NCBI RefSeq assembly: GCF_030013595.1
Contig: NZ_CP122768.1
DNA length: 64,000 nt
Strand: one strand, 5' to 3'
Source of the DNA: Escherichia coli
Lineage (GTDB): Bacteria; Pseudomonadota; Gammaproteobacteria; Enterobacterales; Enterobacteriaceae
Shown here: positions 3,398 through 51,694 of the stretch, one piece after another
Layout of the letters: each line of letters begins with the position of its first letter
How positions within the stretch are numbered: position 1 is the stretch's first letter
Notes under the pieces: generated by a model
Database searches by the model: none
Told to the model about the DNA's origin: nothing
Seen by the model: the letters and a program-made list of their open reading frames with translations, nothing else
Position numbers and translations under genes: made by a program

Positions 3398-3398
3398 C

Positions 3399-7936: not shown

Positions 7937-7967
7937 CGTTCTGTGGTTAAAAATTGAAAGTGTTCTG

Positions 7968-8168
7968 CTAATCTTTCGGATAGATATCCGGTCTTAAGTC
8001 AGATTTCGTAATTGCACCTGACGTGCATTGCTCAAGTTTTTTAGCCAGCACAAAACTGGCTTTTTTATAGCCATTGAAAACCAGCCGTAAGTAGCCAGGA
8101 GTTGAGCCAACTTTTCCGGCCAACTCGCCCTGCTGTTCTTTGGTTAAAGAGTCCCAATACGCTTTCAT
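7968..8168 (-). CDS. Cro-like repressor
   Basis: 66 aa MKAYWDSLTKEQQGELAGKVGSTPGYLRLVFNGYKKASF... with HTH; GGAG SD; divergent from cI; ORF track's 167 aa is an upstream extension. Confidence 0.65.
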   Translation of the reverse strand: MKAYWDSLTKEQQGELAGKVGSTPGYLRLVFNGYKKASFVLAKKLEQCTSGAITKSDLRPDIYPKD

Positions 8169-8222
8169 ACAATATGTACCTCCGGTGTACATATTACATG
8201 ATTGAAATGAACCTTCAAGACA

Positions 8223-8243
8223 CTTGTACCTTAACGGTACAAG
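8223..8243. promoter_or_regulatory. Putative OR operator palindrome between cro and cI
   Basis: cttgtacc-ttaa-cggtacaag inverted repeat; further TGTAC half-sites at 8175 and 8186. Confidence 0.45.
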
Positions 8244-8258
8244 GGTTTTAATTTCGTT

Positions 8259-8933
8259 ATGAAAACAATCCATGACATCCGGCGGTCTAACGCCCGAAAA
8301 CTGAGAGATGGTGTTGGAGGGAATTCTTCCTTTGCCACTATGATTGATCGCGAGCCAACCCAGACCAGCAGGTTTATGGGAGATGGTGCTACTAAAAATA
8401 TCGGTGACAGCATGGCACGACACATCGAAAAATGTTTCGACCTGCCTGTCGGATGGCTCGATCAAGAACACCAGACAACGAACATCACAAAAAAACCTGA
8501 TGTTTCAATCACTAATAAACAAATCACATTAGTCCCTGTCATATCATGGGTACAGGCCGGAGCATGGAAAGAAGTTGGATATTCTGAGGTTGATTTGAGC
8601 ACAGCAGAAACGTATCCCTGCCCTGTACCCTGTGGGGAAATGACTTATATCTTGCGGGTGATAGGTGATTCAATGATTGATGAGTACCGCCCGGGAGACA
8701 TGATTTTTGTCGATCCTGAAGTACCTGCCTGCCACGGTGACGACGTTATTGCATTGATGCACGATACAGGTGAAACCACCTTCAAAAGGTTGATAGAAGA
8801 TGGGACACAGCGTTATCTCAAAGCGTTAAACCCAAACTGGCCTGAGCCTTACATTAAGATCAACGGTAATTGCTCTATAATTGGAACTGTGATTTTCTCA
8901 GGAAAACCAAGAAGATACAAAATCAAAGCCTAA
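8259..8933 (+). CDS. CI-like prophage repressor (HTH plus S24 LexA-like peptidase), CohE-like
   Basis: 224 aa; C-terminal S24 region ...VIGDSMIDEYRPGDMIFVDPEV...; divergent from cro. Confidence 0.8.
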   Translation: MKTIHDIRRSNARKLRDGVGGNSSFATMIDREPTQTSRFMGDGATKNIGDSMARHIEKCFDLPVGWLDQEHQTTNITKKPDVSITNKQITLVPVISWVQAGAWKEVGYSEVDLSTAETYPCPVPCGEMTYILRVIGDSMIDEYRPGDMIFVDPEVPACHGDDVIALMHDTGETTFKRLIEDGTQRYLKALNPNWPEPYIKINGNCSIIGTVIFSGKPRRYKIKA

Positions 8934-8946
8934 TCAATGTTTATGA

Positions 8947-8968
8947 ACCTGCTTCGGCAGGTTTTTTT
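8947..8968 (+). terminator. Rho-independent terminator after the cI-like gene
   Basis: acctgc-ttcg-gcaggt hairpin followed by tttttt. Confidence 0.6.
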
Positions 8969-8972
8969 ATAC

Positions 8973-9000
8973 TTGACAATGTACCCACGAGATACATAAT
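8973..9000 (+). promoter_or_regulatory. Putative pL-like sigma70 promoter with operator repeats
   Basis: TTGACA (8973-8978), 16-bp spacer, CATAAT (8995-9000); direct repeats atgtacccacgaga / atgtacccaagaga share the TGTACC operator half-site. Confidence 0.45.
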
Positions 9001-9081
9001 GTACCCAAGAGAAACAACAAACAGGCAGGACGCCCACGAAGTAGCCGCCTGGGGCATATGAAGTCCAGGATGATTCGTTAG

Positions 9082-9110
9082 CAACAAAAAAGCGCCCTAC
9101 AGGACGCTTA
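9082..9110 (-). terminator. Rho-independent terminator for the minus-strand moron
   Basis: On the minus strand: agcgtcc-tgta-gggcgct hairpin followed by tttttgttg, 38 nt past the stop at 9148. Confidence 0.45.
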
Positions 9111-9147
9111 GCTCTTTAACAATCTGGATATCCACAACAGTAGTAAT

Positions 9148-9639
9148 CTACAGATTGCCGTTAAGTTTTCTGGACAACTCCTCAATGGATGGAGGCGATA
9201 CGTAATCCGGATTTTTATTCATCAGAAACTTATTTTCACAGTGGAGGCACCTGCTTTTATGAAAAAGCTCATCTTCGCTAACCGGGAATGGTTGAAGTAT
9301 CGATACTATCTTTTGTCCAAAACATTTTGGGCAAAGATGCATGGTTATGCTGCCACCGTTCACGATTACCTCCTTCGAGTATACAAAAGTACCCGACTCA
9401 AGTTGGTTAAGGATATAGCCTTCCGTCTGAGCCTCAAAGTTTTCGAATTCTGCAATTTTAGCTTTGAGAGAAGCATTTATTTCTTGATAAGAGCCCACCA
9501 GTTCAACGAGAGACACGCATTCGCGCTGAATAGACGCAAGCTTTGAGTTCAGCTCACCAATAGCCGCATTTACTTCAGCTTGAGTTTTTGCCTCGTTCAT
9601 TAGTTTTGCAATCTGGGCTGTTTCACGAATAGCCGTCAT
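9148..9639 (-). CDS. Hypothetical coiled-coil / C4 zinc-ribbon protein (moron between cI and early-left operon)
   Basis: 163 aa from Met at 9639; N-terminal coiled-coil-like region, C-terminal CPKC...(26)...CLHC; opposite to pL transcription; AT-rich; ORF track extends implausibly to 9927. Confidence 0.5.
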   Translation of the reverse strand: MTAIRETAQIAKLMNEAKTQAEVNAAIGELNSKLASIQRECVSLVELVGSYQEINASLKAKIAEFENFEAQTEGYILNQLESGTFVYSKEVIVNGGSITMHLCPKCFGQKIVSILQPFPVSEDELFHKSRCLHCENKFLMNKNPDYVSPPSIEELSRKLNGNL

Positions 9640-9949
9640 TGCTGCCGTTAATTCAGCGATCACATTGAATACTCTTATTGTTGTTGGGGATATCCAGATT
9701 AACCGAATCCTTGTTGTTGGGGAATAACCAGGTCCACCTCGCCTGATGTGGCTAAAAGCAGGCACATAACAGCTAAGTATTTTCAACCAGAGAGAATCCT
9801 TAGCGTTGTGGTGAATGCGGCTCAGCGCACGCGGGTTAAGGTTGAGGCTGACAGTCGACCTTCTGTGGATACCCACCCGCCTGGTGTGCAACCTTCGCCA
9901 GGCACCGGGAGGCACCCGGCACCACAACTTTATGCTGTGTGTAGTCCTG

Positions 9950-9996
9950 GCGGTACCAGTTTGTACCCTTGCTTCCGGCTGGTACCGTCCTTTTTT
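9950..9996 (+). terminator. Rho-independent terminator in GC-rich non-coding region
   Basis: cggtaccag ... ctggtaccg 9-bp stem followed by tcctttttt. Confidence 0.5.
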
Positions 9997-9997
9997 G

Positions 9998-10084
9998 CAA
10001 AACAGAGAAGAGCATCACCGGACGACGGGCTCATAACCCAATCCATCCGGGCGGCTGCCACCGCAGGTGTTCTTCTCTGTTTTG
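9998..10084. repeat. Long imperfect inverted repeat / RNA stem
   Basis: caaaacagagaagagca and tgttcttctctgttttg (17 bp, one mismatch) flanking ~53 bp of GC-rich sequence. Confidence 0.4.
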
Positions 10085-10133
10085 TGGAGAAACCAACCGA
10101 CCTTGCAGGGTCGATATGATGAGGAGCAGCAAA

Positions 10134-10496
10134 ATGGCTAGCGAACGCAGTACTGATGTGCAGGCATTTATCGGGGAGCTGGACGGCGGCGTATTTGAAA
10201 CCAAAATCGGCGCAGTTCTCAGTGAGGTCGCTTCCGGTGTGATGAACACGAAAACCAAAGGGAAGGTCTCACTCAATCTGGAAATCGAACCGTTTGATGA
10301 GAACCGTGTGAAAATCAAACACAAACTCTCATATGTTCGCCCAACTAACCGCGGGAAAATTTCCGAAGAAGACACCACCGAAACGCCGATGTATGTCAAT
10401 CGCGGTGGTCGCCTGACTATTCTGCAGGAAGACCAGGGACAATTACTGACTCTTGCCGGTGAACCTGACGGAAAACTCCGCGCAGCAGGTCGTTAA
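10134..10496 (+). CDS. YfdP-like prophage protein
   Basis: 120 aa; GAGGAG SD 7 nt upstream of ATG; first gene of the early-left operon, gene order as in CPS-53 yfdPQRST. Confidence 0.6.
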   Translation: MASERSTDVQAFIGELDGGVFETKIGAVLSEVASGVMNTKTKGKVSLNLEIEPFDENRVKIKHKLSYVRPTNRGKISEEDTTETPMYVNRGGRLTILQEDQGQLLTLAGEPDGKLRAAGR

Positions 10497-10561
10497 TATC
10501 GTTCGTAATAAACTGATTATTTATCTCATCACTGAATATCTTTATATAGTGAGGACTTATT

Positions 10562-11386
10562 ATGTCTCAGAACTTAGACGCAACCGCAATTAATCAAATC
10601 CATGCCCTTATTTCTGCTCAGAGTGTTAATGAAATTATCAGTAAGATTGGTGCCGATGCTGTGGCATTGCCTGAGAATTTCCGCATTCATGATCTGGAAA
10701 AATTTAATTTAAATCGCTTCCGTTTCCGTGGTGCACTTTCCACTGCCAGCATCGATGATTTTACCCGTTATTCTAAAGATCTTGCAGATGAAGGCACCCG
10801 CTGCTTTATCGATGCCGATAATATGCGTGCCGTCAGTGTGCTTAACCTGGGTACTATTGATGAGCCAGGTCACGCAGATAACACTGCCACTCTCAAACTG
10901 AAAAAGACAGCACCGTTCTCTGCTCTGTTGTCTGTTAACGGCGAGCGTAACTCCCAGAAGTCACTGGCAGAATGGATCGAAGACTGGGCCGACTACCTTG
11001 TGGGCTTTGATGCTAATGGTGACGCCATTCAAGCAACAAAAGCGGCTGCGGCAGTCCGTAAAATCACGATTGAAGCAAACCATACCGCTGATTTTGAAGA
11101 TAATGACTTCAGCGGCAAACGCTCCCTGATGGAGTCTGTCGAAGCGAAGACCAAAGACATTATGCCAGTGGCATTTGAATTTAAATGCGTTCCGTTTGAA
11201 GGTCTGAAAGAACGTCCGTTTAAATTACGCCTCAGCATTATCACTGGCGATCGTCCTGTACTGGTTCTGCGCATTATTCAGCTGGAAGCGGTGCAGGAAG
11301 AAATGGCTAACGAATTTCGTGATCTGCTTGTTGAGAAATTCAAAGACAGCAAAGTAGAAACCTTTATTGGTACTTTCACCGCCTGA
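10562..11386 (+). CDS. yfdQ: YfdQ family protein (DUF2303)
   Basis: 274 aa, same length and position as CPS-53 YfdQ; TGAGGA SD. Confidence 0.7.
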
Positions 11387-11397
11387 TTTCATTACTG

Positions 11398-11420
11398 CAA
11401 ATGCCCCTGCGGGGGCATTT
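11398..11420 (+). terminator. Stable stem-loop between yfdQ and yfdR (possible attenuator)
   Basis: aatgcccc-tgcg-ggggcatt perfect 8-bp stem; weak T tract. Confidence 0.35.
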
Positions 11421-11513
11421 ATGGAAACGTAATTAACTCAATAATCACCGGATGGTGAGGGCTTCCTTTTACCAGAATTCAGCGCGGTGCAGTGCATATA
11501 CGTGGAGAACAAA

Positions 11514-12050
11514 ATGTCATTTATTAAAACTTTTTCCGGGAAGCATTTTTATTATGACAAGATAAATAAAGACGACATCGATATTAACGATATCGCGGTT
11601 TCCCTTTCAAATATCTGTCGCTTTGCCGGTCATCTTTCGCACTTCTACAGCGTCGCCCAACATGCGGTTCTTTGCAGCCAGCTGGTGCCGCAGGAATTTG
11701 CTTTTGAAGCGTTAATGCATGATGCAACAGAAGCGTATTGCCAGGACATTCCCGCACCACTGAAACGCCTTCTTCCTGACTATAAACGGATGGAAGAAAA
11801 AATAGACGCCGTAATCCGTGAGAAATACGGGTTACCCCCAGTTATGAGTACACCCGTGAAATATGCCGATCTCATCATGCTGGCAACCGAACGCCGCGAT
11901 CTCGGGCTTGATGATGGCTCTTTCTGGCCTGTACTGGAAGGCATCCCGGCAACAGAGATGTTCAACGTGATTCCACTGGCACCGGGTCATGCCTACGGGA
12001 TGTTTATGGAACGTTTTAACGATTTATCGGAGTTACGCAAATGCGCATGA
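11514..12050 (+). CDS. yfdR: HD-domain 5'-deoxynucleotidase YfdR-like
   Basis: 178 aa from MSFIKTF; HD-family residues (...QHAVLCSQ..., ...HDATEAY...); ORF track start at 11487 is an upstream extension. Confidence 0.7.
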   Translation: MSFIKTFSGKHFYYDKINKDDIDINDIAVSLSNICRFAGHLSHFYSVAQHAVLCSQLVPQEFAFEALMHDATEAYCQDIPAPLKRLLPDYKRMEEKIDAVIREKYGLPPVMSTPVKYADLIMLATERRDLGLDDGSFWPVLEGIPATEMFNVIPLAPGHAYGMFMERFNDLSELRKCA

Positions 12051-12403
12051 ATGTTTTCGAAATGGAAGGGTTTCTTCGCGGGAAATGTGTACCGCGAGAT
12101 CTGAAAGTGAACGAAACAAATGCTGAGTACCTGTTACGTAAATTCGACGCGCTTGAAGCTAAATGTGCGGCACTGGAAAACAAAATAATACCAGTGTCAG
12201 CTGAACTGCCACCAGCAAATGAAAGTGTTCTGTTATTTGATGCTAACGGAGAAGGCTGGCTGATTGGCTGGCGTTCTCTCTGGTACACCTGGGGACAAAA
12301 AGAAACCGGAGAATGGCAGTGGACATTTCAGGTCGGGGACCTTGAAAACGTCAATATCACTCACTGGGCAGTAATGCCAAAAGCACCGGAGGCTGGAGCA
12401 TAA
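12041..12403 (+). CDS. yfdS: YfdS-like prophage protein (DUF551)
   Basis: 120 aa, follows yfdR as in CPS-53. Confidence 0.65.
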   Translation: MRMNVFEMEGFLRGKCVPRDLKVNETNAEYLLRKFDALEAKCAALENKIIPVSAELPPANESVLLFDANGEGWLIGWRSLWYTWGQKETGEWQWTFQVGDLENVNITHWAVMPKAPEAGA

Positions 12404-12708
12404 TGACCACATTTACCAATAAAGAACTGATTAAAGAAATCAAAGAACGAATCAGCAGCCTAGAGGTTCGAGACGATATTGAGCGCCGTGCTTATGAAAT
12501 CGCACTCGTATCTCTGGAAGTAGAGCCAGATGAACGCGAAGCCTATGAATTATTCATGGAAAAGCGTTTCGGTGACTTAGTAGATCGTCGGAGAGTAAAA
12601 AACGGCGATAACGAATACATGGCATGGGATATGACTCTCGGTTGGATCGTCTGGCAGCAACGAGCTGGTATCCATTTTTCAACAATGACACAGCAAGAGG
12701 TGAAATAA
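12403..12708 (+). CDS. yfdT: YfdT-like prophage protein
   Basis: 101 aa, coupled to yfdS (ATGA-type overlap). Confidence 0.65.
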   Translation: MTTFTNKELIKEIKERISSLEVRDDIERRAYEIALVSLEVEPDEREAYELFMEKRFGDLVDRRRVKNGDNEYMAWDMTLGWIVWQQRAGIHFSTMTQQEVK

Positions 12709-13079
12709 TGGAGCCATACAGCCTCACACTCGATGAGGCCTGTCAGTTTCTTAAGATATCCAGACCAACCGCCACCAACTGGATACGAACAGGCCGCCTA
12801 CAGGCAACACGTAAAGATCCAACCAAGCCAAAATCTCCTTACCTCACAACACGGCAAGCTTGCATTGCGGCGCTTCAGTCTCCGCTGCATACTGTCCAGG
12901 TGAGCGCGGGTGATGGCATAACAGAGGAAAGAAAATGTCACTCTTCCGCAGAAATGAAATATGGTATGCCTCGTATTCGCTCCCGGGCGGGAAACGAATT
13001 AAGGAATCTCTTGGCACAAAGGACAAGCGGCAAGCTCAGGAGTTGCACGACAAGCGAAAAGCAGAACTCTGGCGAGTAG
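12708..13079 (+). CDS. Putative excisionase (AlpA/Xis-like HTH); 3' end uncertain, frame overlaps int
   Basis: Starts TAATG-coupled to yfdT; N-terminal HTH-like segment [28 protein letters not shown]; frame stays open to 13079. Confidence 0.45.
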
Positions 13080-14098
13080 AAAAGCTAGGGGATTTACCTG
13101 ATGTCACTTTTGAAGAGGCCTGCCTAAGATGGCTTGAGGAAAAAGCTGATAAAAAATCTCTCGATTCAGATAAAAGCCGGATTGAGTTCTGGCTTGAACA
13201 TTTTGAGGGTATAAGGCTTAAAGATATCTCGGAGGCAAAGATTTACTCTGCTGTAAGCAGAATGCATAACAGAAAGACGAAAGAAATATGGAAACAGAAA
13301 GTTCAGGCCGCCATCAGGAAAGGTAAAGAACCGCCTGTTTATGAACCAAAGCCAGTATCAACTCAGACAAAGGCAAAGCATCTTGCCATGATAAAGGCCA
13401 TTCTCCGTGCTGCAGAACGCGACTGGAAGTGGCTGGAAAAAGCGCCTGTCATCAAGATACCAGCGGTCAGAAACAAGCGAGTCAGATGGCTGGAAAAGGA
13501 GGAAGCAAAACGCCTTATTGATGAGTGCCCCGAACCACTGAAATCTGTCGTCAAGTTTGCGCTGGCAACTGGTCTGAGAAAGTCGAACATCATAAATCTG
13601 GAATGGCAACAAATCGACATGCAGCGACGAGTTGCCTGGGTGAATCCAGAAGAGAGCAAATCAAACCGCGCCATTGGTGTGGCGCTGAACGATACCGCCT
13701 GTAAAGTGTTGCGTGATCAAATAGGCAAGCATCACAAATGGGTGTTTGTACATACCAAGGCGGCTAAGCGAGCAGATGGAACATCAACGCCTGCGGTCAG
13801 GAAGATGCGCATCGACAGCAAGACATCATGGCTATCAGCTTGTCGTCGTGCAGGAATTGAAGATTTCCGTTTCCATGACCTCAGACACACCTGGGCAAGC
13901 TGGCTGATCCAGTCAGGCGTCCCATTATCTGTGCTTCAGGAAATGGGCGGATGGGAGTCCATAGAAATGGTTCGTAGGTATGCTCACCTTGCGCCTAATC
14001 ATTTGACAGAGCATGCAAGGAAAATAGACGACATTTTTGGTGATAATGTCCCAAATATGTCCCACTGTGGAATTATGGAGGATATAAAGAAGGCGTAA
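12935..14098 (+). CDS. intD: Tyrosine integrase (IntD-like), adjacent to argU
   Basis: 387 aa; C-terminal catalytic region ...[17 protein letters not shown]...VRRYAHL; ends 16 bp from the tRNA 3' end. Confidence 0.85.
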
Positions 14099-14113
14099 CT
14101 GATTGAATTGTAA

Positions 14114-14190
14114 TGGCGCGCCCTGCAGGATTCGAACCTGCGGCCCACGACTTAGAAGGTCGTTGCTCTATCCAACTGAGCTAAGGGCGC
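14114..14190 (-). tRNA. argU: tRNA-Arg (anticodon UCU), argU
   Basis: Reverse complement GCGCCCTTAGCTCAGTTGGATAGAGCAACGACCTTCTAAGTCGTGGGCCGCAGGTTCGAATCCTGCAGGGCGCGCCA, 77 nt, cloverleaf-compatible. Confidence 0.95.
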
Positions 14191-14432
14191 GTTGATACCG
14201 CAATGCGGTGTAATCGCGTGAATTATACGGTCAACCCTTGCTGAGTCAATGGCTTTTGATCTGGTTGCTGAACAAGTGAACGACCGCGTCTGATTTTCTG
14301 ATTTATTTCGCTATAGCGGCAAACAAACGTACATCGCTGCGCGTCTGAATCAAGAAAACTCGTATTTTCATGTATCAAAGTACAATTTCCCGCCCTAACG
14401 GAAAATTGTCCGATCCAATGAGACTGGTAACT

Positions 14433-26327: not shown

Positions 26328-27391
26328 AACAGGTTTGCGTCCTCGGTAACGGGCAGTTAGGCCGTATGCTGCGCCAGGCAGGCGAACCGTTAGGCATTGC
26401 TGTCTGGCCAGTCGGGCTGGACGCTGAACCGGCGGCGGTGCCTTTTCAACAAAGCGTGATTACCGCTGAGATCGAACGCTGGCCGGAAACCGCATTAACC
26501 CGCGAGCTGGCGCGCCATCCGGCCTTTGTGAACCGCGATGTATTCCCGATTATTGCTGACCGTCTGACTCAGAAGCAGCTTTTCGACAAGCTTCACCTAC
26601 CGACCGCACCGTGGCAGTTACTTGCCGATCGCAGCGAGTGGCCTGCGGTGTTTGATCGTTTAGGTGAGCTGGCGATTGTTAAGCGTCGCACTGGTGGCTA
26701 TGACGGACGCGGTCAATGGCGTTTACGCGCCGATGAAACCGAACAGTTACCGGCTGAATCCTACGGCGAATGTATTGTCGAGCAGGGCATAAACTTCTCT
26801 GGTGAAGTGTCGCTGGTTGGCGCGCGCGGCTTTGATGGCAGCACCGTGTTTTATCCGCTGACGCATAACCTGCATCAGGACGGTATTTTACGCACCAGCG
26901 TCGCTTTCCCGCAGGCCAACGCGCAGCAACAGGCACAAGCTGAAGAGATGTTGTCGGCGATTATGCAGGAGCTGGGCTATGTGGGCGTGATGGCGATGGA
27001 GTGTTTTGTCACCCCGCAAGGTCTGCTGATCAACGAACTGGCTCCGCGTGTGCATAACAGCGGTCACTGGACACAAAACGGTGCCAGCATCAGCCAGTTT
27101 GAGCTGCATCTGCGGGCGATTACCGATCTGCCGTTACCGCAACCGGTAGTGAATAGCCCGTCGGTGATGATCAACCTGATTGGTAGCGATGTGAATTATG
27201 ACTGGCTGAAACTGCCGCTGGTGCATCTGCACTGGTACGACAAAGAAGTCCGTCCGGGCCGTAAAGTGGGGCATCTGAATTTAACCGACAGCGACACATC
27301 GCGTCTGACCGCGACGCTGGAAGCCTTAATCCCGCTGCTGCCGCCGGAGTATGCCAGTGGCGTGATTTGGGCGCAGAGTAAGTTCAGTTAA
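26324..27391 (+). CDS. purK: N5-carboxyaminoimidazole ribonucleotide synthase PurK
   Basis: 355 aa ATP-grasp; 4-nt overlap with purE. Confidence 0.95.
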
Positions 27392-27409
27392 CCTGGTGCT
27401 CATATTCTT

Positions 27410-27520
27410 GCCGGATTCGGCGTGAACGCCTTATCCGGCTTACCGCTCCGGTACCCATTGTAGGCCTGATAAGACGCGTCAAGCGTCGCATCAGGCATGG
27501 TGCGCCGATTGCCGGATGCT
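27410..27520. repeat. REP/BIME palindromic elements
   Basis: gccggattcggcgtgaacgccttatccggc and aggcctgataagacgcg...cgtcgcatcaggc motifs. Confidence 0.6.
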
Positions 27521-27527
27521 CTCATCA

Positions 27528-28421
27528 CTACAGCGAAATACAGGTCCCCGCTTCGCCCGCCAGCGTCTCTTCAATCCGCGATAACGCCCCAATCCACGCA
27601 GGTTTGCCACGGCTTCTGACATAGCCACTCACCGCCATTACCTTCGGCCCCATCGAACCATCGGCTTTGGCAAATGGCGCTAACTCATCCGGTGTGGCAT
27701 GGCGAATGGCACGTTGCTGCGGCGTTCCCCAGTTTTCATATACCGCATCAGCATCGGTGAGGATCACCAGCCCATCGGCATTAATCTGCTCGGCGAGCAA
27801 CGCAGCGGCGAGATCTTTATCAATCACTGCTTCACTCCCTGCTCCGTCATCCGTCACAGGCACACCGCCGCCGCCACTGCAAATCACCACATGCCCCTCT
27901 TTGAGCAACAACTCGATGGCTTCGCTGTCGAGAATTTTACGCGGTTGCGGAGACGCCACCACCCGGCGCAAATATTTACCATCACGTTTCATCTGCCAGC
28001 CGTAAGCCGCTTCCAGTGCCTTTTGTTCTTCTGGCTGATAAACCGGACCGATAAACTTCTCTGGCTGCAAAAACGCCGGATCATCAGGCGAAACCTCAAT
28101 GCGCGTCAGCACCGTCGTCACGGGCGGCATCTGCGGCTGTGCGCTCAAGCTCTGCGCCAGCATATAGCCAATCATCCCCTGGCTTTCCGCCACCAGCACA
28201 TCCAGCGGATACGGTTCTACCTCTTTCCACGCCAGATTCTGTAACGCCAGCAGCCCCACCTGCGGCCCGTTGCCGTGAACAATCGCCAGCCGATAAGAAC
28301 GGGCCAGGCGCGCCAGCGCAGGTACAGCGCTGGCGATATTGCGATATTGATTTTCTGCCGTCAGCGCCTCACCGCGCTGAAGCAAGGCATTGCCCCCAAG
28401 AGCCACAACCAGTGTTTTCAT
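27528..28421 (-). CDS. arcC: Carbamate kinase-like protein YbcF/ArcC (allantoin pathway)
   Basis: 297 aa amino-acid kinase family, [18 protein letters not shown]... Confidence 0.9.
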
Positions 28422-29233
28422 GGTTTTCCTTGTAATAATTGTTGACCAAGCCAGAACCCCAGCAGCGTATCTGCCCCTGACGTATGCCCCAGCGCCAGCA
28501 GCGAATCAATCGCAACAGCGGTACGTTTCGGGCAACTCAGAGCATGGACAAAGTGCAGGAGTGGCGAGGCGAAATATCCTTGCGCGGCATAACGTAAATA
28601 ACTGACGCTCACCGCTGTGGTAACGAGTTGAAGATTGTCGGAACAGGCAAAAAACTGGCGACCGGAGCGCGTATCTAAAGCGCCATAATACCAGGCCGCC
28701 AGCAGCATTCCGCTCAGCGTGTCATCATGACTTGGCGTTAATCCCGGACCTTTACCCAGCCAGTGCCGCCAGTCGGTCTTAACGCCATTGAGCGCGGCCT
28801 GAAAACAGTGACGAAACTGGCGTAATTCAGCAGGAAGCGGATCGCCTGCCGCCAACGCCAGTGGCCCGAAAAGCCCGGTTTCCTCCGCGCGTTGCATCCA
28901 TGCCGCTGCAAGCGGTTGAGGATGCGCAGGCGGCGTAATACGCAGCAAACAATAACGCTGTGGCTGTTTAACCGTGAAACGTCCGAGGCGAATCCCTTGA
29001 GCCACAACCTGTGGTCGTTCATTGCCGCATAATCCACCGCATAACGCATCGAATTGCGCGCGGCGAAGCACCCATCCTCCGGGGCCGAAACCACTACCCT
29101 GACGATGCAGCGTTAACAGTTCGCCGCTTTCCGTCATCAGGTTAATCGCCCGCCGCCACACTCCCGCTAACCGCCAGGACTGGCGATAATTCGGTGCGCT
29201 ACTACTGGCAAGCAGAGGATGGATGATCGTCAT
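28418..29233 (-). CDS. ylbF: YlbF (putative oxamate carbamoyltransferase subunit)
   Basis: 271 aa from MTIIHPLL; ORF track upstream extension ignored. Confidence 0.8.
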
Positions 29234-29243
29234 TGCGCGTTCC

Positions 29244-30503
29244 TCAACCAATCCCCATGCTTTCAGCCAGTGCTTCCAGCGCCTGTTCAAAGCACGCCAG
29301 CGGTGCCCGCACAGTGCCTGCGCCAATCTGCCCGATCCCCGCCTCTTTATGGGCGATACCGGTATTGATGAGTGGCGTAATGCCGGTTTCTACCACGCGA
29401 CGAATATCCAGCCCCAGGCACGCGCCCTGAAAATCCCAGCTTGGGATCTGCAACTGCATATTGCGTTCAAGGTAAATTTCCGCCATCTCTTCAGATACCG
29501 CTCTGGCCGCTTCCATGCCACCCGCACCGACAAAGCGCGTTACGCCAGGCGCTGCGATCATTGCCGCACCTCCGATACCAAAGGTTTCGGTAATTGCGCT
29601 ATCGCCCATATCCGGGTTCGCCTGCTCCTGCGAGAAGCCGGTGAAAAACAGACCTTGGGGAGTGTTTACAGGCGCAGTAAACCAGCGTTCGCCCAGCCCG
29701 CTGACCCGAATCCCGAACATATTGCCGTTGCGGGTCATAGCCGTGACGATGCTGCCTGCGCGGATCATCGCACCAGCATCCATCGCCGCCTTGCAGTAAG
29801 CCATCGCGAGGTTGAGGAAGAACTGATCGGTCACGCTGAGGAAATCCATCACTTCCGCGATGTGCTGTTTATCATGATCGAGGCGAGCAATTTGTGGGGC
29901 CAGCGCACGCATTAACAGTGCTGAGGAAGCAATATTGCGTTGATGGAACTCATCGCCCATGGTAATGCCCTGCGCCATCATCGCGGTAAGATCGATACCG
30001 TGCTCCATGCGCCCCAGCGCCGCGCTTAATACTGGCATTAACACATCGCGCATCCAGCGATGGCGAGTCAGGACATCTTCGCCGTAAGCGCCAAAACGCA
30101 TCACTTTGCCGATACCTTCGTTGAGGTTGCAGTACGCCCGGTTGCCGTCGGTCACGTTCTCGACCACCAGCATCGGCATACTGGCAGAAGTAATGCCGCC
30201 CATTGGCCCGACAGCATTCACATGGTGACAAGGAATGAAGTTCACTTCCCCCTGCTCCAGCATTGCCAGCGCCTGCGCTTCATCTTTCGCCCAGCCTTCA
30301 AACAGACATGCGCCCACACATGCCCCTTTCATGGGTCCGGTCATCTCCTGCCAGCGCATTGGCGGCCCGGCGTGAAGCAGTGTTTTGCCCTCGTTTAGTT
30401 CGCTGATAAGTGAAGAAGCCGGTTGCACATCCAGCCAGTGTGGACGAGCGCGACGAATTTGTTCGATAACCGCAGCATTGGCTTGCGCCACTGATGTAAA
30501 CAT
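29244..30503 (-). CDS. ylbE: YlbE (DUF1116), intact
   Basis: 419 aa continuous ORF. Confidence 0.8.
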
Positions 30504-30512
30504 GGGAACCCC

Positions 30513-32180
30513 TTATTGCAAACGTTCTAATAAACGAGCCAGTTTTTTATTGCCGCCGGCGACTGGCGACCATTGGTAATGCACTACCGGTTTGCTGGCG
30601 CTTTGTAGCTCCAGCGCAAAGCTGCGTAATCCAATGTTAATCACGGCGACGTTTTCCAGTAATGACGGTGTATGTGGCTGTGCGGCAGGCGAGAGCGGAT
30701 GAATTAACGCTGCCGCCAGCAAGGTGGCTTCCGGTAGCGAACTCACGACCACAATCCCCGCATCTTCCAGCGTGGCGATTTGCTGCGAGCGGCATTGCGG
30801 GTCACGTTCGGTACCTGTCACCGTGGCAATGGCGTACAGCGGTTGGCTGTCTGAACGCGCGGCACAGGCTTTTTGCCAGGCGCTCACCAGCGAGGCAGCA
30901 GGATCGGCGGTCGCGCCGAAGCCAATCACGACATCAAGCAGCAACACGCGCACTTGCGGTTTAGCGCCGAGATCGGCAATTAACTGGTTGCGTAAGGTTG
31001 GGTCGATCATCGGATGGGGACGCCCGACGGTGTAGAAATCATCGCCGAGGTCAATGATCTGGTGACCATCGGCGTCCAGCATCATGCCGTGATGATGGGT
31101 ATCGTCGGCTTCCACGCCAAGGTGTCCGGCAAGTAATCCCGCCGCTTCGGCAGCCAGCGTACCGCCGGTATACAAACCGCAAATAAATCCGCTGCTGGCA
31201 GGCGTTATCGCGTTACGTCGCGCCGAGACGCGTGAAAGCAGGCAAGCCAGGCGTGCGGCCTCATCCAGCGAGGAGGCAAACCAGACATTCTCGTCGCGGG
31301 CCACCGCCGGGGTATAACCTAAAAACAGCGCCACCGTCGGTTTGCCAGTTGCTTTCATGGCATTAACAATTTTCAGACGCACAGCTTCGGCAGGTGGTTT
31401 TGAAACAAATGCCAGCACTTCGCTTTTCGCGTCGGCGCTTAACATTTCCAGCGCCGTTAGCGCACTGATGCCGCCCACTTCACGGCTGAGGTCGCGCCCG
31501 CCAAGACCAATCGCGTGAGTAATTCCCTCCTCTGCCAGCGCAATCTGTGAGCACAGCTCCTGAATCCCGGTACCGGAAGCGCCAATGACGCCAATGTTGC
31601 CTTCCGGCATCACGTTAGCAAAAGCCAGCGGCGTGGCGGCAATCATCGACGTACCGCAGTCCGGCCCCATCACCAGCAAGCCTTTATCGCGTGCGCGGGT
31701 TTTGAGTTGGATTTCATCTTCCAGCGTGACGTTATCGGAGAACATCATCACGTTGAGGTTGCGATCCAGCGCCTGATTCGCCAGCTCCGCCGCATACTCG
31801 CCAGCCACTGAAATCAGCGCCAGACTGGCATCGGGTAATTTCTGACAGGCACTGTCCCAGCGACGCACCTGCGTCAACGCCTGGCTGCTGCCTGAACCCT
31901 GCGCCAGTTGTTTTAGCGCCTCTTCAAGCTGTTGCATAATCGCCTGCGCGATCCCCGCATCCGCCGCTTCGCTACGAATTGCCACGCAAATATCGTTCGG
32001 CGTGGCGTTATTAAAATCGTCATGCCAGAAACCTGTCGTCTCTAATAACGCTTTATTGGCGGGCGTACCCATCATTACGGAAACATCATCAACATTTTCT
32101 GATTCGCTTAGTTTTCGTGAAATAATCATTAAACTGACCGAATCCTGAAAACACCCTTTTTTAATAAAGGCGTGGATCAT
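30513..32180 (-). CDS. fdrA: FdrA (CoA-binding, succinyl-CoA synthetase-like)
   Basis: 555 aa. Confidence 0.85.
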   Translation of the reverse strand: MIHAFIKKGCFQDSVSLMIISRKLSESENVDDVSVMMGTPANKALLETTGFWHDDFNNATPNDICVAIRSEAADAGIAQAIMQQLEEALKQLAQGSGSSQALTQVRRWDSACQKLPDASLALISVAGEYAAELANQALDRNLNVMMFSDNVTLEDEIQLKTRARDKGLLVMGPDCGTSMIAATPLAFANVMPEGNIGVIGASGTGIQELCSQIALAEEGITHAIGLGGRDLSREVGGISALTALEMLSADAKSEVLAFVSKPPAEAVRLKIVNAMKATGKPTVALFLGYTPAVARDENVWFASSLDEAARLACLLSRVSARRNAITPASSGFICGLYTGGTLAAEAAGLLAGHLGVEADDTHHHGMMLDADGHQIIDLGDDFYTVGRPHPMIDPTLRNQLIADLGAKPQVRVLLLDVVIGFGATADPAASLVSAWQKACAARSDSQPLYAIATVTGTERDPQCRSQQIATLEDAGIVVVSSLPEATLLAAALIHPLSPAAQPHTPSLLENVAVINIGLRSFALELQSASKPVVHYQWSPVAGGNKKLARLLERLQ

Positions 32181-32497
32181 AACAACTCCTTAAAAATTGC
32201 ACCCATGGCAATTGCACGAGCAGTGTTAATGTGGCGATTACGGTATCGATGACAACGAGTAAATAAGGTGATGAATATCACACAGGGATTATTAACAAAA
32301 GAATTCAAATAACCGCCAGGCTATTACGTGTTATTTTTTTAATAAGCGTGGTTGTTTTAAAAACCAGGTTAAAAGCGAGCGGATTATCAAATAAATTCTA
32401 ACTATATTTTTTTGCCTGTCTGGATCACATAATCCAGATATTTTCCCTGTATGTTAATTGCAGTCATGCTTCACACCGTCGTTAAAAAGGAAGACAG

Positions 32498-33547
32498 ATG
32501 AAAATCAGTCGGGAAACACTCCACCAGCTAATCGAGAATAAACTCTGCCAGGCTGGGTTAAAACGTGAGCACGCTGCAACCGTGGCTGAAGTATTGGTTT
32601 ACGCCGATGCCAGAGGGATCCACTCTCATGGCGCGGTGCGCGTGGAATACTACGCGGAACGCATTTCAAAAGGCGGCACCAACCGCGAACCGGAGTTTCG
32701 TCTTGAGGAAACCGGGCCGTGTTCGGCAATTTTACATGCCGACAATGCTGCCGGACAGGTCGCGGCGAAAATGGGTATGGAACATGCCATCAAAACCGCC
32801 CAGCAAAAAGGCGTTGCGGTGGTCGGTATCAGCCGGATGGGTCACAGCGGCGCAATCTCTTATTTTGTACAGCAGGCAGCTCGCGCCGGGTTAATTGGCA
32901 TTTCGATGTGCCAGTCCGATCCAATGGTGGTGCCGTTTGGCGGCGCGGAAATTTACTACGGTACTAACCCACTGGCCTTTGCCGCGCCGGGAGAAGGCGA
33001 CGAGATCCTTACCTTTGATATGGCGACTACCGTACAGGCATGGGGAAAAGTGCTCGACGCCCGCTCGCGTAATATGTCTATCCCGGATACCTGGGCGGTC
33101 GATAAAAACGGTGCACCAACAACCGATCCATTTGCAGTTAACGCCCTGCTCCCTGCCGCCGGACCGAAAGGGTATGGCCTGATGATGATGATTGACGTCC
33201 TCTCAGGCGTCTTACTCGGCTTACCGTTCGGGCGACAGGTTAGTTCGATGTATGACGATTTACACGCCGGGCGTAATTTGGGGCAATTACATATCGTTAT
33301 TAACCCGAACTTTTTCTCCTCCAGCGAACTATTCCGTCAACATCTTAGCCAGACCATGCGCGAATTAAATGCCATAACCCCCGCGCCCGGTTTTAACCAG
33401 GTTTATTATCCCGGACAGGATCAGGATATTAAACAACGCAAAGCCGCCGTCGAAGGCATCGAAATTGTTGATGATATTTACCAGTATTTAATTTCTGACG
33501 CGCTTTATAACACGTCATACGAAACGAAAAATCCCTTTGCGCAATAA
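32498..33547 (+). CDS. allD: Ureidoglycolate dehydrogenase AllD
   Basis: 349 aa Ldh_2 family. Confidence 0.9.
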   Translation: MKISRETLHQLIENKLCQAGLKREHAATVAEVLVYADARGIHSHGAVRVEYYAERISKGGTNREPEFRLEETGPCSAILHADNAAGQVAAKMGMEHAIKTAQQKGVAVVGISRMGHSGAISYFVQQAARAGLIGISMCQSDPMVVPFGGAEIYYGTNPLAFAAPGEGDEILTFDMATTVQAWGKVLDARSRNMSIPDTWAVDKNGAPTTDPFAVNALLPAAGPKGYGLMMMIDVLSGVLLGLPFGRQVSSMYDDLHAGRNLGQLHIVINPNFFSSSELFRQHLSQTMRELNAITPAPGFNQVYYPGQDQDIKQRKAAVEGIEIVDDIYQYLISDALYNTSYETKNPFAQ

Positions 33548-33568
33548 TTATTGAGACAGGACTTTCTT

Positions 33569-34804
33569 ATGATTACACATTTCCGTCAAGCCATAGAAGA
33601 AACGCTGCCCTGGCTTTCCTCTTTTGGCGCTGACCCAACGGGTGGGATGACCCGTTTACTTTATTCGCCGGAATGGCTGGAAACTCAGCAGCAATTTAAA
33701 AAAAGAATGGCAGCAAGCGGGCTGGAAACACGTTTCGATGAAGTGGGGAATTTATATGGTCGCCTGAGTGGCACCGAATATCCACAAGAAGTGGTTCTGA
33801 GCGGTTCGCATATCGATACCGTGGTTAACGGCGGTAACCTCGACGGGCAATTCGGCGCGCTGGCGGCGTGGCTGGCAATTGACTGGCTGAAAACGCAATA
33901 CGGCGCGCCGTTACGTACGGTCGAAGTGGTGGCGATGGCAGAAGAAGAAGGCAGCCGCTTCCCGTATGTCTTCTGGGGCAGTAAAAATATCTTTGGGCTG
34001 GCGAATCCTGACGACGTGCGGAATATCTGTGATGCCAAAGGAAATAGTTTTGTCGATGCGATGAAGGCTTGCGGATTTACTCTGCCGAACGCCCCACTAA
34101 CTCCGCGTCAGGATATTAAAGCCTTTGTTGAACTGCATATTGAACAGGGCTGTGTGCTGGAAAGCAATGGGCAGTCAATTGGCGTGGTGAATGCAATTGT
34201 CGGGCAGCGTCGTTATACGGTGACGCTGAACGGCGAATCAAACCATGCAGGCACCACGCCGATGGGTTATCGTCGTGATACGGTTTACGCTTTCAGTCGC
34301 ATTTGCCATCAGTCTGTCGAAAAAGCGAAAAAGATGGGCGATCCGCTGGTTCTGACCTTTGGCAAAGTAGAGCCGCGCCCGAATACGGTGAATGTGGTGC
34401 CGGGTAAAACCACGTTCACCATTGATTGTCGCCATACCGATGCTGCCGTGCTGCGCGATTTCACCCAACAGTTAGAAAACGACATGCGGGCGATTTGCGA
34501 TGAAATGGACATTGGTATTGATATCGATTTATGGATGGACGAAGAACCCGTGCCGATGAACAAGGAACTGGTCGCCACCCTGACAGAATTGTGTGAACGC
34601 GAAAAACTGAATTACCGGGTGATGCACAGTGGTGCCGGGCACGACGCACAAATTTTCGCGCCGCGCGTGCCGACCTGCATGATTTTTATCCCCAGCATCA
34701 ACGGGATCAGCCATAACCCGGCAGAACGCACCAATATTACCGACCTTGCCGAAGGGGTCAAAACGTTGGCACTCATGCTTTATCAACTTGCCTGGCAGAA
34801 ATAA
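33569..34804 (+). CDS. allC: Allantoate amidohydrolase AllC
   Basis: 411 aa from MITHFRQAIEE; M20 peptidase family. Confidence 0.9.
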   Translation: MITHFRQAIEETLPWLSSFGADPTGGMTRLLYSPEWLETQQQFKKRMAASGLETRFDEVGNLYGRLSGTEYPQEVVLSGSHIDTVVNGGNLDGQFGALAAWLAIDWLKTQYGAPLRTVEVVAMAEEEGSRFPYVFWGSKNIFGLANPDDVRNICDAKGNSFVDAMKACGFTLPNAPLTPRQDIKAFVELHIEQGCVLESNGQSIGVVNAIVGQRRYTVTLNGESNHAGTTPMGYRRDTVYAFSRICHQSVEKAKKMGDPLVLTFGKVEPRPNTVNVVPGKTTFTIDCRHTDAAVLRDFTQQLENDMRAICDEMDIGIDIDLWMDEEPVPMNKELVATLTELCEREKLNYRVMHSGAGHDAQIFAPRVPTCMIFIPSINGISHNPAERTNITDLAEGVKTLALMLYQLAWQK

Positions 34805-34814
34805 GGAGTTATAA

Positions 34815-35600
34815 ATGGGATATTTAAATAACGTCACCGGTTACCGCGATGATTTACTGGCTAACCGTGCGATTGTGAAACACGGTAATTTCGCGCTGCT
34901 AACCCCGGACGGTCTGGTAAAAAATATTATTCCGGGCTTTGAAAATTGTGACGCGACAATCCTCTCCACGCCAAAGCTGGGTGCCTCTTTTGTTGATTAT
35001 CTGGTCACACTGCATCAAAACGGTGGCAACCAACAGGGCTTCGGGGGCGAAGGCATTGAAACGTTCCTGTATGTGATCTCTGGAAATATCACTGCCAAAG
35101 CCGAAGGTAAAACATTTGCCTTAAGCGAAGGTGGCTATCTTTATTGCCCACTAGGCTCCTTAATGACGTTTGTTAACGCCCAGGCCGAAGACAGCCAAAT
35201 CTTTTTATATAAGCGTCGCTATGTTCCGGTAGAAGGTCATGCGCCGTGGCTGGTTTCTGGCAATGCCAGCGAACTCGAACGCATTCATTATGAAGGCATG
35301 GACGATGTTATTCTGCTGGATTTTCTGCCCAAAGAGTTAGGTTTTGATATGAACATGCATATCCTCTCTTTTGCGCCAGGTGCCAGCCACGGTTATATCG
35401 AAACTCACGTCCAGGAACACGGTGCCTATATTCTTTCCGGTCAGGGGGTTTATAACCTCGACAATAACTGGATCCCGGTGAAAAAAGGCGATTACATCTT
35501 TATGGGCGCTTATTCCTTACAGGCCGGTTATGGCGTAGGGCGTGGTGAAGCGTTTAGTTATATTTACTCAAAAGATTGCAACCGCGACGTAGAGATTTAA
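34815..35600 (+). CDS. allE: (S)-ureidoglycine aminohydrolase AllE (cupin)
   Basis: 261 aa. Confidence 0.9.
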   Translation: MGYLNNVTGYRDDLLANRAIVKHGNFALLTPDGLVKNIIPGFENCDATILSTPKLGASFVDYLVTLHQNGGNQQGFGGEGIETFLYVISGNITAKAEGKTFALSEGGYLYCPLGSLMTFVNAQAEDSQIFLYKRRYVPVEGHAPWLVSGNASELERIHYEGMDDVILLDFLPKELGFDMNMHILSFAPGASHGYIETHVQEHGAYILSGQGVYNLDNNWIPVKKGDYIFMGAYSLQAGYGVGRGEAFSYIYSKDCNRDVEI

Positions 35601-41130: not shown

Positions 41131-41399
41131 AAATCCCTCTTAATTTCACGTATCGAATAACGTTGTTTTAATCTAGCTATGAGGAACAAATAAAATAAAA
41201 AATATTATTTTTAATGCTGAAGCAACATCTTTGGCTGCTTTCTTTTTTTAATATTGCTGGCCGATTCATTTTCTGATATCGGCCATTTTTATTGCGGGTA
41301 TCAGGCCAGTTTATGGTTAGCCATTAATTCCAGCGCCTGCACTAACGCAGAGTGATCCAACTGGCTGCCACCGTTTGCCGCACAGGTATTAAATAACTC

Positions 41400-42179
41400 C
41401 TAGCAGGTCGCAGTGTTTGGCAGGTTCAGCGCAAGTGCTTTCGCACTTTGCAGTGCCAGGTTGAGATCTTTCTGGTGCAGCGCAATTTTAAAACCTGGAT
41501 TAAAGGTGCGTTTAATCATGCGCTCACCGTGAACTTCCAGAATACGTGAGGAAGCAAAGCCGCCCATCAGCGCCTGGCGCACACGTACCGGATCCGCTCC
41601 GGCTTTTGAAGCAAATAGCAGGGCTTCAGAAACCGCTTCAATATTGAGCGCCACGATAATCTGATTTGCCACTTTGCAGGTTTGACCGTCGCCGTTACCG
41701 CCCACGAGGGTGATATTTTTACCGAGCAGTTCAAACAGCGGTTTAACACGTTCAAATACCGCTTCGTCGCCGCCAACCATAATCGACAACGTCCCTTCAC
41801 GCGCGCCGATTTCACCGCCGGAGACGGGCGCATCGAGATAATCGCCGCACAGTTCATTCACCTGACGAGCGAAACGTTTAGTTTCGATCGGGGAAATGGA
41901 GCTCATATCAACAATGGTTTTGCCCTTCAGCGAGGTTTTGGTACAACCATTTTCACCAAACAGAACTTCTTCAACCTGTGGCGTATCCGGCACCATAATA
42001 AAAATGATGTCCGATGCTTCCGTTACCTGGCGCGCAGTTTCAACACTGACGGCACCCAGTGACAGTAATTCATCAGCAACCGGACCAATGGTTGTGACAT
42101 GCAGTTGATGACCGGCACGCGCCAGATTAATGGCCATCGGTGTACCCATAATGCCTAAGCCAATAAATCCCAGTTTCAT
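41400..42179 (-). CDS. glxR: Tartronate semialdehyde reductase GlxR, C-terminally truncated by an in-frame TAG (259 aa vs 292 aa full length); possible pseudogene
   Basis: Stop at 41400-41402; the same frame continues with ELFNTCAANGGSQLDHSALVQALELMANHKLA to TGA at 41301-41303. Confidence 0.85.
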   Translation of the reverse strand: MKLGFIGLGIMGTPMAINLARAGHQLHVTTIGPVADELLSLGAVSVETARQVTEASDIIFIMVPDTPQVEEVLFGENGCTKTSLKGKTIVDMSSISPIETKRFARQVNELCGDYLDAPVSGGEIGAREGTLSIMVGGDEAVFERVKPLFELLGKNITLVGGNGDGQTCKVANQIIVALNIEAVSEALLFASKAGADPVRVRQALMGGFASSRILEVHGERMIKRTFNPGFKIALHQKDLNLALQSAKALALNLPNTATC

Positions 42180-49345: not shown

Positions 49346-51694
49346 TCACCCCGCAAACTGCCTGAACAGCGCCTTACCCTTAACCAGTCGCGCGCCCAGC
49401 CAGCCGCCGCAAAGCGACAGCAGCAGCGCACCGCTGCACGGCAGAACAATCCACAATCGCCAGTCTGGCTCCCACGGAAAATCAAACACTTTCGCCTGCA
49501 ACACTGCCAGCGCCGTTTCCGCACCAATTGCGGCCACCAGGCCAGAAACAAACCCGAGCATGGCGAACTCACACCACAACGTGGTACGCAGCAGTTTTTT
49601 CCCCGCACCGAGTGTGCGCCACACCACCAGCTCCTGATGACGCTGACGCATTCCCACCTGCACCTGTGCCAGCAACAGCAACATACCGCAGGCGGTGACC
49701 AGCACCACCATCACCTCCAGCGCCCGACTTACCTGCTCCAGCACCTGACCGACCTGTTTTAAAATCGCGCCAATGTCTAACAGGCTAATGGTAGGGAACT
49801 GGCGGTTGAGTTGCGTCAACATGCCGTTGCCATTCTCCCAGCGGAAACTGGTAAGCCAGCTCTGCGGTTGCCCGTCTAATGCCCCTTCCGGGAAAATAAA
49901 ATAGAAATTAGGCCGCAGACTTTCCCAGTCCACTTTGCGCAGGCTGGTCACTTTAGCGCGGAACTCCTGGGTATCGCCCATAAAGGTGACTGTATCGCCG
50001 AGGCCAACGTTTAAGCGTTTCGCCAGCCCCTCTTCCATCGACACTTCATCGGCTTTTGGCGGCCAGTTACCGGCGACAATCGGATTATGATCGGGCCGCG
50101 TATTTTGCCAGGTAAGATTAAGTTCGCGATTGAGCGCCTCATCTTCATTGCCTTCTGTCGGCTTGCCGTTAATCGCCGTCAGTCTCGCCCGCACCACCGG
50201 ATAAAATGATTCCGGGACTATCTGATGTTCCGCGAGGAACGCTTTTAGCGGTGCTACCTGTTCTGTGGCGATGTTGATTAAAAAGTAGTTCGGGCTTTCT
50301 GGCGGTAGCTGCTGTTGCCAGCGGTCGAGCAGATCGCCACGCAATACCAGCAACAGCGCCAGCAGCATAAAGGAGAGCGAAAATGCCGAAAGCTGGCTTA
50401 ACGTTGACCACGGCTGACGTAACAGGCGGCTAACCGCCAGGCGCAGAGGCAGCGATTTCAGCGTCATGCGGCGAAGTACATTCAGCAGCATGCTGCCACC
50501 CATTAATCCGGCGAGCAGCACCACAACCACCACACTGACAATCGGCAGATAAAACTTCAGCGGCCAGACGTTCGCTACCACATCATTACGTAATACGCGT
50601 AAAGGCTGCGTTGCCAGCAACAAGCGGTATGGTCGTAGCCCCACCAGCAGCGAGATAACCGTCATGGTGCCCAGCGCCCATAGCCACGGCCAGAGGCTGG
50701 CTGGCGGTAGTGCAGCAGGCAGAACGGGCTTGAGCAGCACCATCAACACGTTTTCGAACAACAGGCCTATCGCCCCGCCGGTAACGGCTGAAAGCGCCAG
50801 CACCATCAACCACTGACCGACGATTAGCTTACGCAGTTGCGCTCGCCCTGCCCCCAGCGTTTTGAGGATCGCCACCAGATCGTAGCGACTGCGACAGTAA
50901 TGATTCATCGCCACCGCCACCGCTGCCACTGCCAGCAGCAAGGTCAGAAGCGCCGAAAGCAGCAGGAACTGTTGCGAGCGTTCCATCGAGCGCCCCAGCG
51001 CGCCTTCGTCCTGTTCCAGACCGTACCAGCGTTGTTCGGGTTTAAGCTGGGGTAACAACCATTTCTCATAGCCGTCGAGCTGGTTCTCGTTGCCGCCGAA
51101 TTTATAGCGCCAGGTGACCCGACTTCCCGGCTGCACGGCTCCGGTTTTATCGACATCCGCCAGATTCATCATCAGACGCGGAGCCATCTGGAAGGGGTTA
51201 AAACCGGAATCCGGTTCCTGAATCACTTCTCCGGCAATCCGCAAGGTGGCATCACCCACGTCGATGGTGTCGCCTGTTTTCAGGTTAAGCAGTGCCATCA
51301 GGCGTGGGGCCAGCAATACGCTGCCCGCCTGCGGTTTCAGGCCAGGGGGATTAGTTTGCAGATCGCCATACATCGGGTAGATATCATCCACCGCTTTGAC
51401 GTTCGCCAGCTGCGGTGTGTCGCCTGCAAATGTCATGGTGGCGAAAGTCAGCTGCTTGCCGACTTTCAGGCCGCGCTTTTGCGCTTCCTCCAGCCACGCT
51501 TGCGGCACTTCGCGCGAACTGCGCAACGCCCGATCGCCCGCCATAAACTCCCGGCTTTGCTGGCTTAAGCCCTTCTCCATGCGATCGCTGATATTGCCCA
51601 GCGCCAGCACGCAGGCCACCGCCAGGCTTAGCGCCAGCCAGACAATTAATAGCGACGGCGAGCGCCATTCGCGCCAGAACCAACGTGCAATCAT
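49346..51694 (-). CDS. ybbP: ABC transporter permease YbbP (FtsX-like)
   Basis: 782 aa multi-pass membrane protein; 4-nt overlap with ybbA. Confidence 0.9.
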   Translation of the reverse strand: MIARWFWREWRSPSLLIVWLALSLAVACVLALGNISDRMEKGLSQQSREFMAGDRALRSSREVPQAWLEEAQKRGLKVGKQLTFATMTFAGDTPQLANVKAVDDIYPMYGDLQTNPPGLKPQAGSVLLAPRLMALLNLKTGDTIDVGDATLRIAGEVIQEPDSGFNPFQMAPRLMMNLADVDKTGAVQPGSRVTWRYKFGGNENQLDGYEKWLLPQLKPEQRWYGLEQDEGALGRSMERSQQFLLLSALLTLLLAVAAVAVAMNHYCRSRYDLVAILKTLGAGRAQLRKLIVGQWLMVLALSAVTGGAIGLLFENVLMVLLKPVLPAALPPASLWPWLWALGTMTVISLLVGLRPYRLLLATQPLRVLRNDVVANVWPLKFYLPIVSVVVVVLLAGLMGGSMLLNVLRRMTLKSLPLRLAVSRLLRQPWSTLSQLSAFSLSFMLLALLLVLRGDLLDRWQQQLPPESPNYFLINIATEQVAPLKAFLAEHQIVPESFYPVVRARLTAINGKPTEGNEDEALNRELNLTWQNTRPDHNPIVAGNWPPKADEVSMEEGLAKRLNVGLGDTVTFMGDTQEFRAKVTSLRKVDWESLRPNFYFIFPEGALDGQPQSWLTSFRWENGNGMLTQLNRQFPTISLLDIGAILKQVGQVLEQVSRALEVMVVLVTACGMLLLLAQVQVGMRQRHQELVVWRTLGAGKKLLRTTLWCEFAMLGFVSGLVAAIGAETALAVLQAKVFDFPWEPDWRLWIVLPCSGALLLSLCGGWLGARLVKGKALFRQFAG

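Follow-up and report, generated by a model that had tools for sequence, protein, structure and literature searches.

Oxamic transcarbamylase of Escherichia coli was described in experiments on strain MG1655 (Appl Environ Microbiol 2024; PMC11326118). Three proteins, AllF, AllG and AllH, the products of fdrA, ylbE and ylbF, together form this enzyme and carry out the reversible conversion of oxalurate and phosphate to oxamate and carbamoyl phosphate. Wild-type MG1655 produced 17.7 mM oxamate from 19.5 mM allantoin; the level was 0 mM after deletion of either allF or allG and 1.2 mM after deletion of allH, with flux going to oxalate instead in mutants of all three genes (PMC11326118). Purified AllF-AllG-AllH, made from the MG1655 genes in BL21(DE3), formed oxalurate from oxamate and carbamoyl phosphate, with Michaelis constants (Km) of 1.3 mM (carbamoyl phosphate) and 36.9 mM (oxamate) (PMC11326118). 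The product of a fourth gene, ybcF (allK), is a catabolic carbamate kinase in MG1655 (PMC9843812), and in K-12 the genes fdrA-ylbE-ylbF-ybcF are co-transcribed and induced anaerobically by allantoin (PMC11326118, PMC9843812). The classical transcarbamylases (the aspartate transcarbamylase PyrB, the ornithine transcarbamylases ArgI/ArgF, and YgeW) catalyze the same type of reaction, the transfer of a carbamoyl group to or from carbamoyl phosphate, but they require one or two gene products whereas AllFGH requires three (PMC11326118). Here we describe the ylbE gene, and the operon to which it belongs, in a 64,000-nucleotide (nt) stretch of E. coli DNA (contig NZ_CP122768.1, assembly GCF_030013595.1), the whole of which is referred to below as the window.

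The window gene is almost certainly a normal, functional allele of allG, the second gene of an allFGHK operon whose neighbor within the allantoin cluster is allDCE. Translation of the minus strand, together with the listing of open reading frames (ORFs), gave one continuous protein with a single terminal stop, and the plus strand in the same frame contains many stops (coordinates of this and the other features are given in Table 1). A first-pass annotation of this DNA had reported a single intact 419-codon ORF here, which was confirmed with the addition of the strand, which it had not given. Its identification of the gene as ylbE is also upheld, in that the genome annotations, the PF06545 family match described below and the flanking genes fdrA and ylbF all agree.

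The same annotation had further stated that a frameshift makes ylbE a pseudogene in K-12 MG1655, and this statement is out of date. In the current reference, NC_000913.3, ylbE (b4572, YP_009029994.1; 548357-549616) is an ordinary coding sequence of 1260 nt that carries no pseudogene flag and has the product name "DUF1116 domain-containing protein YlbE". The pairwise alignment with MG1655 that had been proposed as a check showed two genes of equal length, 1260 nt each, that differ at 23 nt (98.17% identity) with no insertion or deletion, and an intact MG1655 reference is the very outcome that had been named as contradicting the statement. The MG1655 protein (b4572, formerly b0519; UniProt P77129) has the same locus, operon and 419-amino-acid length as the product of the window gene, and 417 of the 419 residues are identical (99.5%). 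The two replacements, I81M and R168H, are at sites that also vary in the family, as judged by comparison of E. coli with Enterococcus. With 21 synonymous and two non-synonymous changes, the ratio of non-synonymous to synonymous substitution rates (dN/dS) for ylbE is 0.028, and the values for ybcF, ylbF and fdrA are 0.049, 0.069 and 0.141, respectively. The low ratio indicates strong purifying selection on ylbE and is the signature of a gene at work in both the window and the K-12 lineages. The three other genes of the operon are 97-98% identical to their MG1655 counterparts, with three amino-acid differences in the case of ylbF.

Membership of the window protein in the AllG family was evident from several types of comparison. 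It matched Pfam PF06545 (Oxamate carbamoyltransferase subunit AllG, formerly DUF1116), the family profile for this subunit, over all of its positions (1-215 of 215), with a score of 325.8 bits (cut-off, 27; E=1.4e-97). It also aligned from end to end (residues 2-414, E=7e-112) with PDB 3CLQ, a conserved protein from another organism, Enterococcus faecalis V583, whose entry has no assigned function. The structure model for AllG equals 3CLQ, so that the predicted fold of the window protein is that of this solved family member. The family comprises 3,128 clusters at 50% identity (E<=1e-3), and its canonical members have ~410-430 amino acids; dozens of representatives align with the window ORF over roughly residues 5-415. 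In an alignment of 59 members, the invariant residues W273, G299, G308 and G310 and 26 nearly invariant ones were all found to be kept in the window protein, which thus has the full-length AllG architecture in both size and conserved residues. Based on the PF06545 match, the end-to-end alignment with 3CLQ and the dN/dS of 0.028 relative to K-12, the window ylbE is not a chance ORF.

The origin of the pseudogene designation can be followed in the sequence records. In the W3110 RefSeq record, NC_007779.1 (547581-548839), ylbE is still a 1259-nt pseudogene flagged "frameshifted", and alignment with NC_000913.3 revealed exactly two differences: a silent G>A change at gene nt 114, in codon 38, and a run of four G residues (G4) in place of five (G5) at nt 252-256, which leads to a stop at codon 87. 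The old MG1655 and W3110 allele therefore represents the same gene at the same locus as that of the window, but with A114, G4 and the stop at codon 87, whereas in the window nt 114 is G, the run is G5 and there is no internal stop, i.e., the allele of current MG1655. Resequencing relative to NC_000913.2 had yielded the changes "547,694 A->G" and "547,831 +G" (PMC5460176), and these are the same two differences as in the W3110 record; that study listed both of these known reference discrepancies as mutations of an evolved strain. An intact "ancestral" ylbE was described in the K-12 strain NCM3722 (PMC3045373), a ylbE+ allele was assigned to laboratory MG1655 and to ATCC 47076 (PMC4759930), and the old frameshift was reported as absent from MG1655 stocks (PMC4404585, PMC4759930). 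It has also been reported as missing in all other E. coli and put down to a probable error of sequencing, a suspicion expressed by UniProt and by the CanOE authors (PMC3364942). The frameshift that the first-pass annotation described belongs to the superseded (pre-2013) MG1655 reference.

In order to place the two alleles within the species, the region was compared by megablast with 5,426 complete E. coli genomes, 5,420 of which matched it at 95-100% identity with an annotated ylbE between fdrA and ylbF; the ylbE gene itself was found in 5417 of the 5426. Sixty records, spaced evenly down the full match ranking, were used to assess gene length: 59 of them gave an ungapped match to the window gene that spans exactly 1260 nt, and the sixtieth is a truncation. 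A 68-nt probe for the G4 allele, which spans 68 nt in the records of G4 carriers and 69 nt in those of G5 carriers, identified G4 in only four of 5417 records, namely W3110 and three MG1655-like assemblies (CIT, LIM and CAR; NZ_CP026026-28). All other records among the matches listed, including those of the K-12 strains J53, ME8067 and ER1709, had the 69-nt span of G5. Since 59 of the 60 sampled copies are full length and G4 is so rare, the intact 1260-nt, 419-codon ylbE is the species norm, present in ~99.8% of complete E. coli genomes.

An alternative history for K-12 is that the isolates originally sequenced truly carried the G4/A114 allele, in which case the G5 run would be a slippage-prone site that occasionally inactivates allG. 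Two observations fit this scenario: the silent change and the 1-nt deletion are linked in both the old MG1655 sequence and the W3110 record, which would be unusual for random base-calling errors, and the deletion falls in a homopolymer. Against it, the intact allele was found in every independently resequenced K-12 stock that is reported (PMC3045373, PMC4759930, PMC5460176, PMC4404585). Among the matches listed there was no G4 in non-K-12 records, and an error in the old sequence has been suspected, as noted above. The largest of the three MG1655-like G4 assemblies is 4,639,673 bp, essentially as long as the old MG1655 reference. Because these three records match that reference in length (4,639,673 bp and below), they suggest reference-guided assembly rather than a real variant. 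On balance, we regard a real G4 variant in the K-12 lineage as unlikely.

The setting of ylbE in the window is consistent with its assignment as a functional allG. The genes fdrA-ylbE-ylbF-ybcF are on one strand, from 32180 down to 27528, and diverge from allDCE, whose first gene, allD, begins at plus-strand position 32498. Spacing within the operon is tight, with gaps of 9 and 10 nt that contain ribosome-binding sites and a 4-nt overlap between the ybcF start and the ylbF stop, so that gene order, spacing and divergence from allDCE are all those of an allFGHK operon. The first-pass annotation had also listed ylbF, fdrA and "arcC" (which is ybcF) as continuous, and this is correct: the three genes have no internal stops and encode 271, 555 and 297 amino acids, lengths equal to those of their MG1655 counterparts. 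FdrA matched PDB 3DMY with E=5e-299; for AllH, PDB sequence searches gave no match even at E<=10. The divergent allD-fdrA intergenic region is well conserved relative to MG1655, with a handful of differing positions that include one 1-nt indel. When 27300-32600 was scanned for promoters and terminators, matches were no more numerous than in shuffled sequence, and the scan was not used. Downstream of the operon, the spacer between ybcF and purK (27392-27527) is 136 nt in the window and 194 nt in MG1655, which has one extra copy of a repetitive extragenic palindromic (REP)-like palindromic repeat (GCCTGATGCGACGCTTGACGCGTCTTATCAGGCCTAC).

Table 1. Coordinates of ylbE, its sites and the surrounding features in the window.
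Feature	Coordinates	Strand	Description
ylbE (allG)	29244..30503	minus	AllG subunit of oxamic transcarbamylase; 419 codons + TGA, ATG start
G5 homopolymer, gene nt 252-256	30248..30252	minus	Site of the historical K-12 frameshift; intact G5 allele in the window, read directly
Gene nt 114, third base of codon 38 (GAG)	30390	minus	G in the window, as in NC_000913.3
fdrA (allF)	30513..32180	minus	First operon gene, 555 amino acids; CoA_binding + Ligase_CoA, like succinyl-CoA synthetase alpha
ylbF (allH)	28418..29233	minus	271 amino acids; Pfam PF11392 AllH, E=1.4e-29
ybcF (allK)	27528..28421	minus	Catabolic carbamate kinase, "arcC" of the first-pass annotation, 297 amino acids; NCBIfam NF006926, E=5.5e-187
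allD-fdrA intergenic region	32181..32497		Divergent; operon promoter region and AAGGAG ribosome-binding site
allD-allC-allE	32498..35600	plus	Operon for the preceding pathway steps; all three genes intact
glxR	41301-42179	minus	Tartronate semialdehyde reductase 2; in-frame amber TAG at 41400-41402, codon 260 of 292
ybbP	49346-51694	minus	Putative ABC-transporter permease, 782 amino acids; deletion junction about 50484-50491
DLP12-like prophage remnant	1-14331		Linked to argU; adjoins tRNA-Arg(TCT)
tRNA-Arg(TCT)	14114-14190		Next to the prophage remnant

In other organisms FdrA and YlbE occur fused, as proteins of ~1,000 amino acids with the architecture CoA_binding + Ligase_CoA + AllG (P0003, P0009, P0011 and P0015). 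Since both are encoded there as a single polypeptide, this suggests, by analogy, that AllF and AllG may act as one physical and functional unit. One of these fusions carries, in addition, a cupin domain at its C terminus. Two other relationships were considered for the operon proteins and rejected. AllF and AllG do not form an alpha/beta pair like that of succinyl-CoA synthetase, as the combination of a CoA_binding/Ligase_CoA alpha subunit with a partner of the succinyl-CoA synthetase beta C-terminal fold was not found. Neither do the four proteins belong to the aspartate/ornithine transcarbamylase superfamily, to which they have no sequence or domain relationship; no Pfam or NCBIfam match (E<=1e-3) to the OTCace_N or OTCace domains was obtained for any of them.

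A second alternative is that the ORFs are intact but that the oxamate branch is silent or impaired in the window strain, for example through substitutions in FdrA or regulatory differences. Three points weigh against a functional allG operon and deserve consideration here: fdrA is the most diverged of the four genes, with 15 amino-acid differences from K-12; fdrA single-nucleotide polymorphisms (SNPs) have been reported to redirect flux to the glyoxylate route (PMC11326118); and structure comparison yielded no informative structural neighbours for AllG. In addition, glxR, elsewhere in the allantoin cluster, is cut by a nonsense codon, so the cluster is not pristine. Conversely, dN/dS is 0.03-0.14 across the four operon genes, conservation extends to the promoter region and the ribosome-binding sites, the invariant and nearly invariant AllG residues are present, and allS, allR, allA, allB, allC, allD and allE are all intact in the window. 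We consider a silent or impaired branch to be very improbable. Instead, it is likely that the AllFGHK proteins of the window strain are active as in MG1655, a property transferred at 97-99.5% protein identity, given the 99.5% identity of AllG, the location of its substitutions at variable sites, its kept invariant residues, the packing of the operon and the conserved regulatory region. The proposal of the first-pass annotation that the cluster is probably functional in this strain holds to this extent, in that fdrA-ylbE-ylbF-ybcF appears functional from its sequence; since glxR is truncated, the description applies to the allFGHK operon and not to every nearby gene.

The third possibility, that an intact ylbE is specific to the window strain and that the cluster is functional there and non-functional in K-12 MG1655, could draw on the frameshift that the older MG1655 reference did carry (PMC5460176) and on the flag in the W3110 record, but it has practically no standing and its K-12 premise is already refuted by the current annotation and by experiments in MG1655, as ylbE is intact in NC_000913.3 and in MG1655 stocks (PMC4759930, PMC4404585), G4 is confined to the four records above, and wild-type MG1655 yields oxamate from allantoin and requires allG to do so (PMC11326118), which means that the ylbE of MG1655 itself is functional.

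With respect to glxR, codon 260 is CAG (Gln) in both K-12 and the closest database relative of the window, the pig-faeces strain HCP5S3_I2, and the TAG of the window is one of 14 SNPs between the two. All other genes of the allantoin cluster are intact in the window, glxR alone being disrupted. The same amber codon was identified in two unrelated genomes among 3,502 matched, 2013C-4830, in which glxR is annotated as a pseudogene ("internal stop"), and 2012C-4227. The annotation of 2013C-4830 also marks allB (allantoinase) as frameshifted (locus L006 4780-6069, NZ_CP027325.1), and the allantoin cluster of that strain may be decaying or its assembly may contain indel errors. That the pairing of an intact allFGHK, the oxamate branch that yields ATP, with a truncated glxR (Q260*) in the glyoxylate/glycerate branch results from recurrent selection diverting allantoin carbon from the gcl-hyi-glxR route is highly doubtful.

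HCP5S3_I2 is 100% identical to the window across ylbE. Identity of the window as a whole to that strain was rejected on the basis of the 14 SNPs, which lie within 14332-50491, the 66-nt length difference in ybbP and a prophage segment that is inverted and interrupted by an insertion sequence (IS). Two of the 14 SNPs are in fdrA (31878 and 32040). The ybbP product has 804 amino acids in HCP5S3_I2, the shorter form in the window reflecting the in-frame loss of 66 nt between direct repeats of 8 nt (AGCAGCAT), which takes out residues 402-423 (LWAVLAGAVVLALLCGVLGWML), a hydrophobic stretch of 22 residues resembling a membrane helix. In the prophage remnant, positions 1229-14233 of the window are the reverse complement of the matching HCP5S3_I2 segment. 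The prophage porin gene of HCP5S3_I2 is partial and has an IS4-family element (ISVsa5), whereas the window has no IS there; its first 1.4 kb spans the porin gene and essD, an arrangement shared with many other E. coli.

The gene, the operon and the enzyme activity had already been described in the MG1655 work of 2022 and 2024, and nothing in the window adds to them. An intact ylbE is no distinguishing feature of this strain and carries little biological weight. The ylbE "pseudogene" is instead a practical lesson about references, in that the W3110 RefSeq record and a few reference-guided assemblies still contain an allele of the old sequence. In E. coli with the intact operon, AllK uses the carbamoyl phosphate released by AllFGH to form ATP from ADP, and allFGHK thereby supplies the cell with energy and nitrogen when it grows anaerobically on allantoin.
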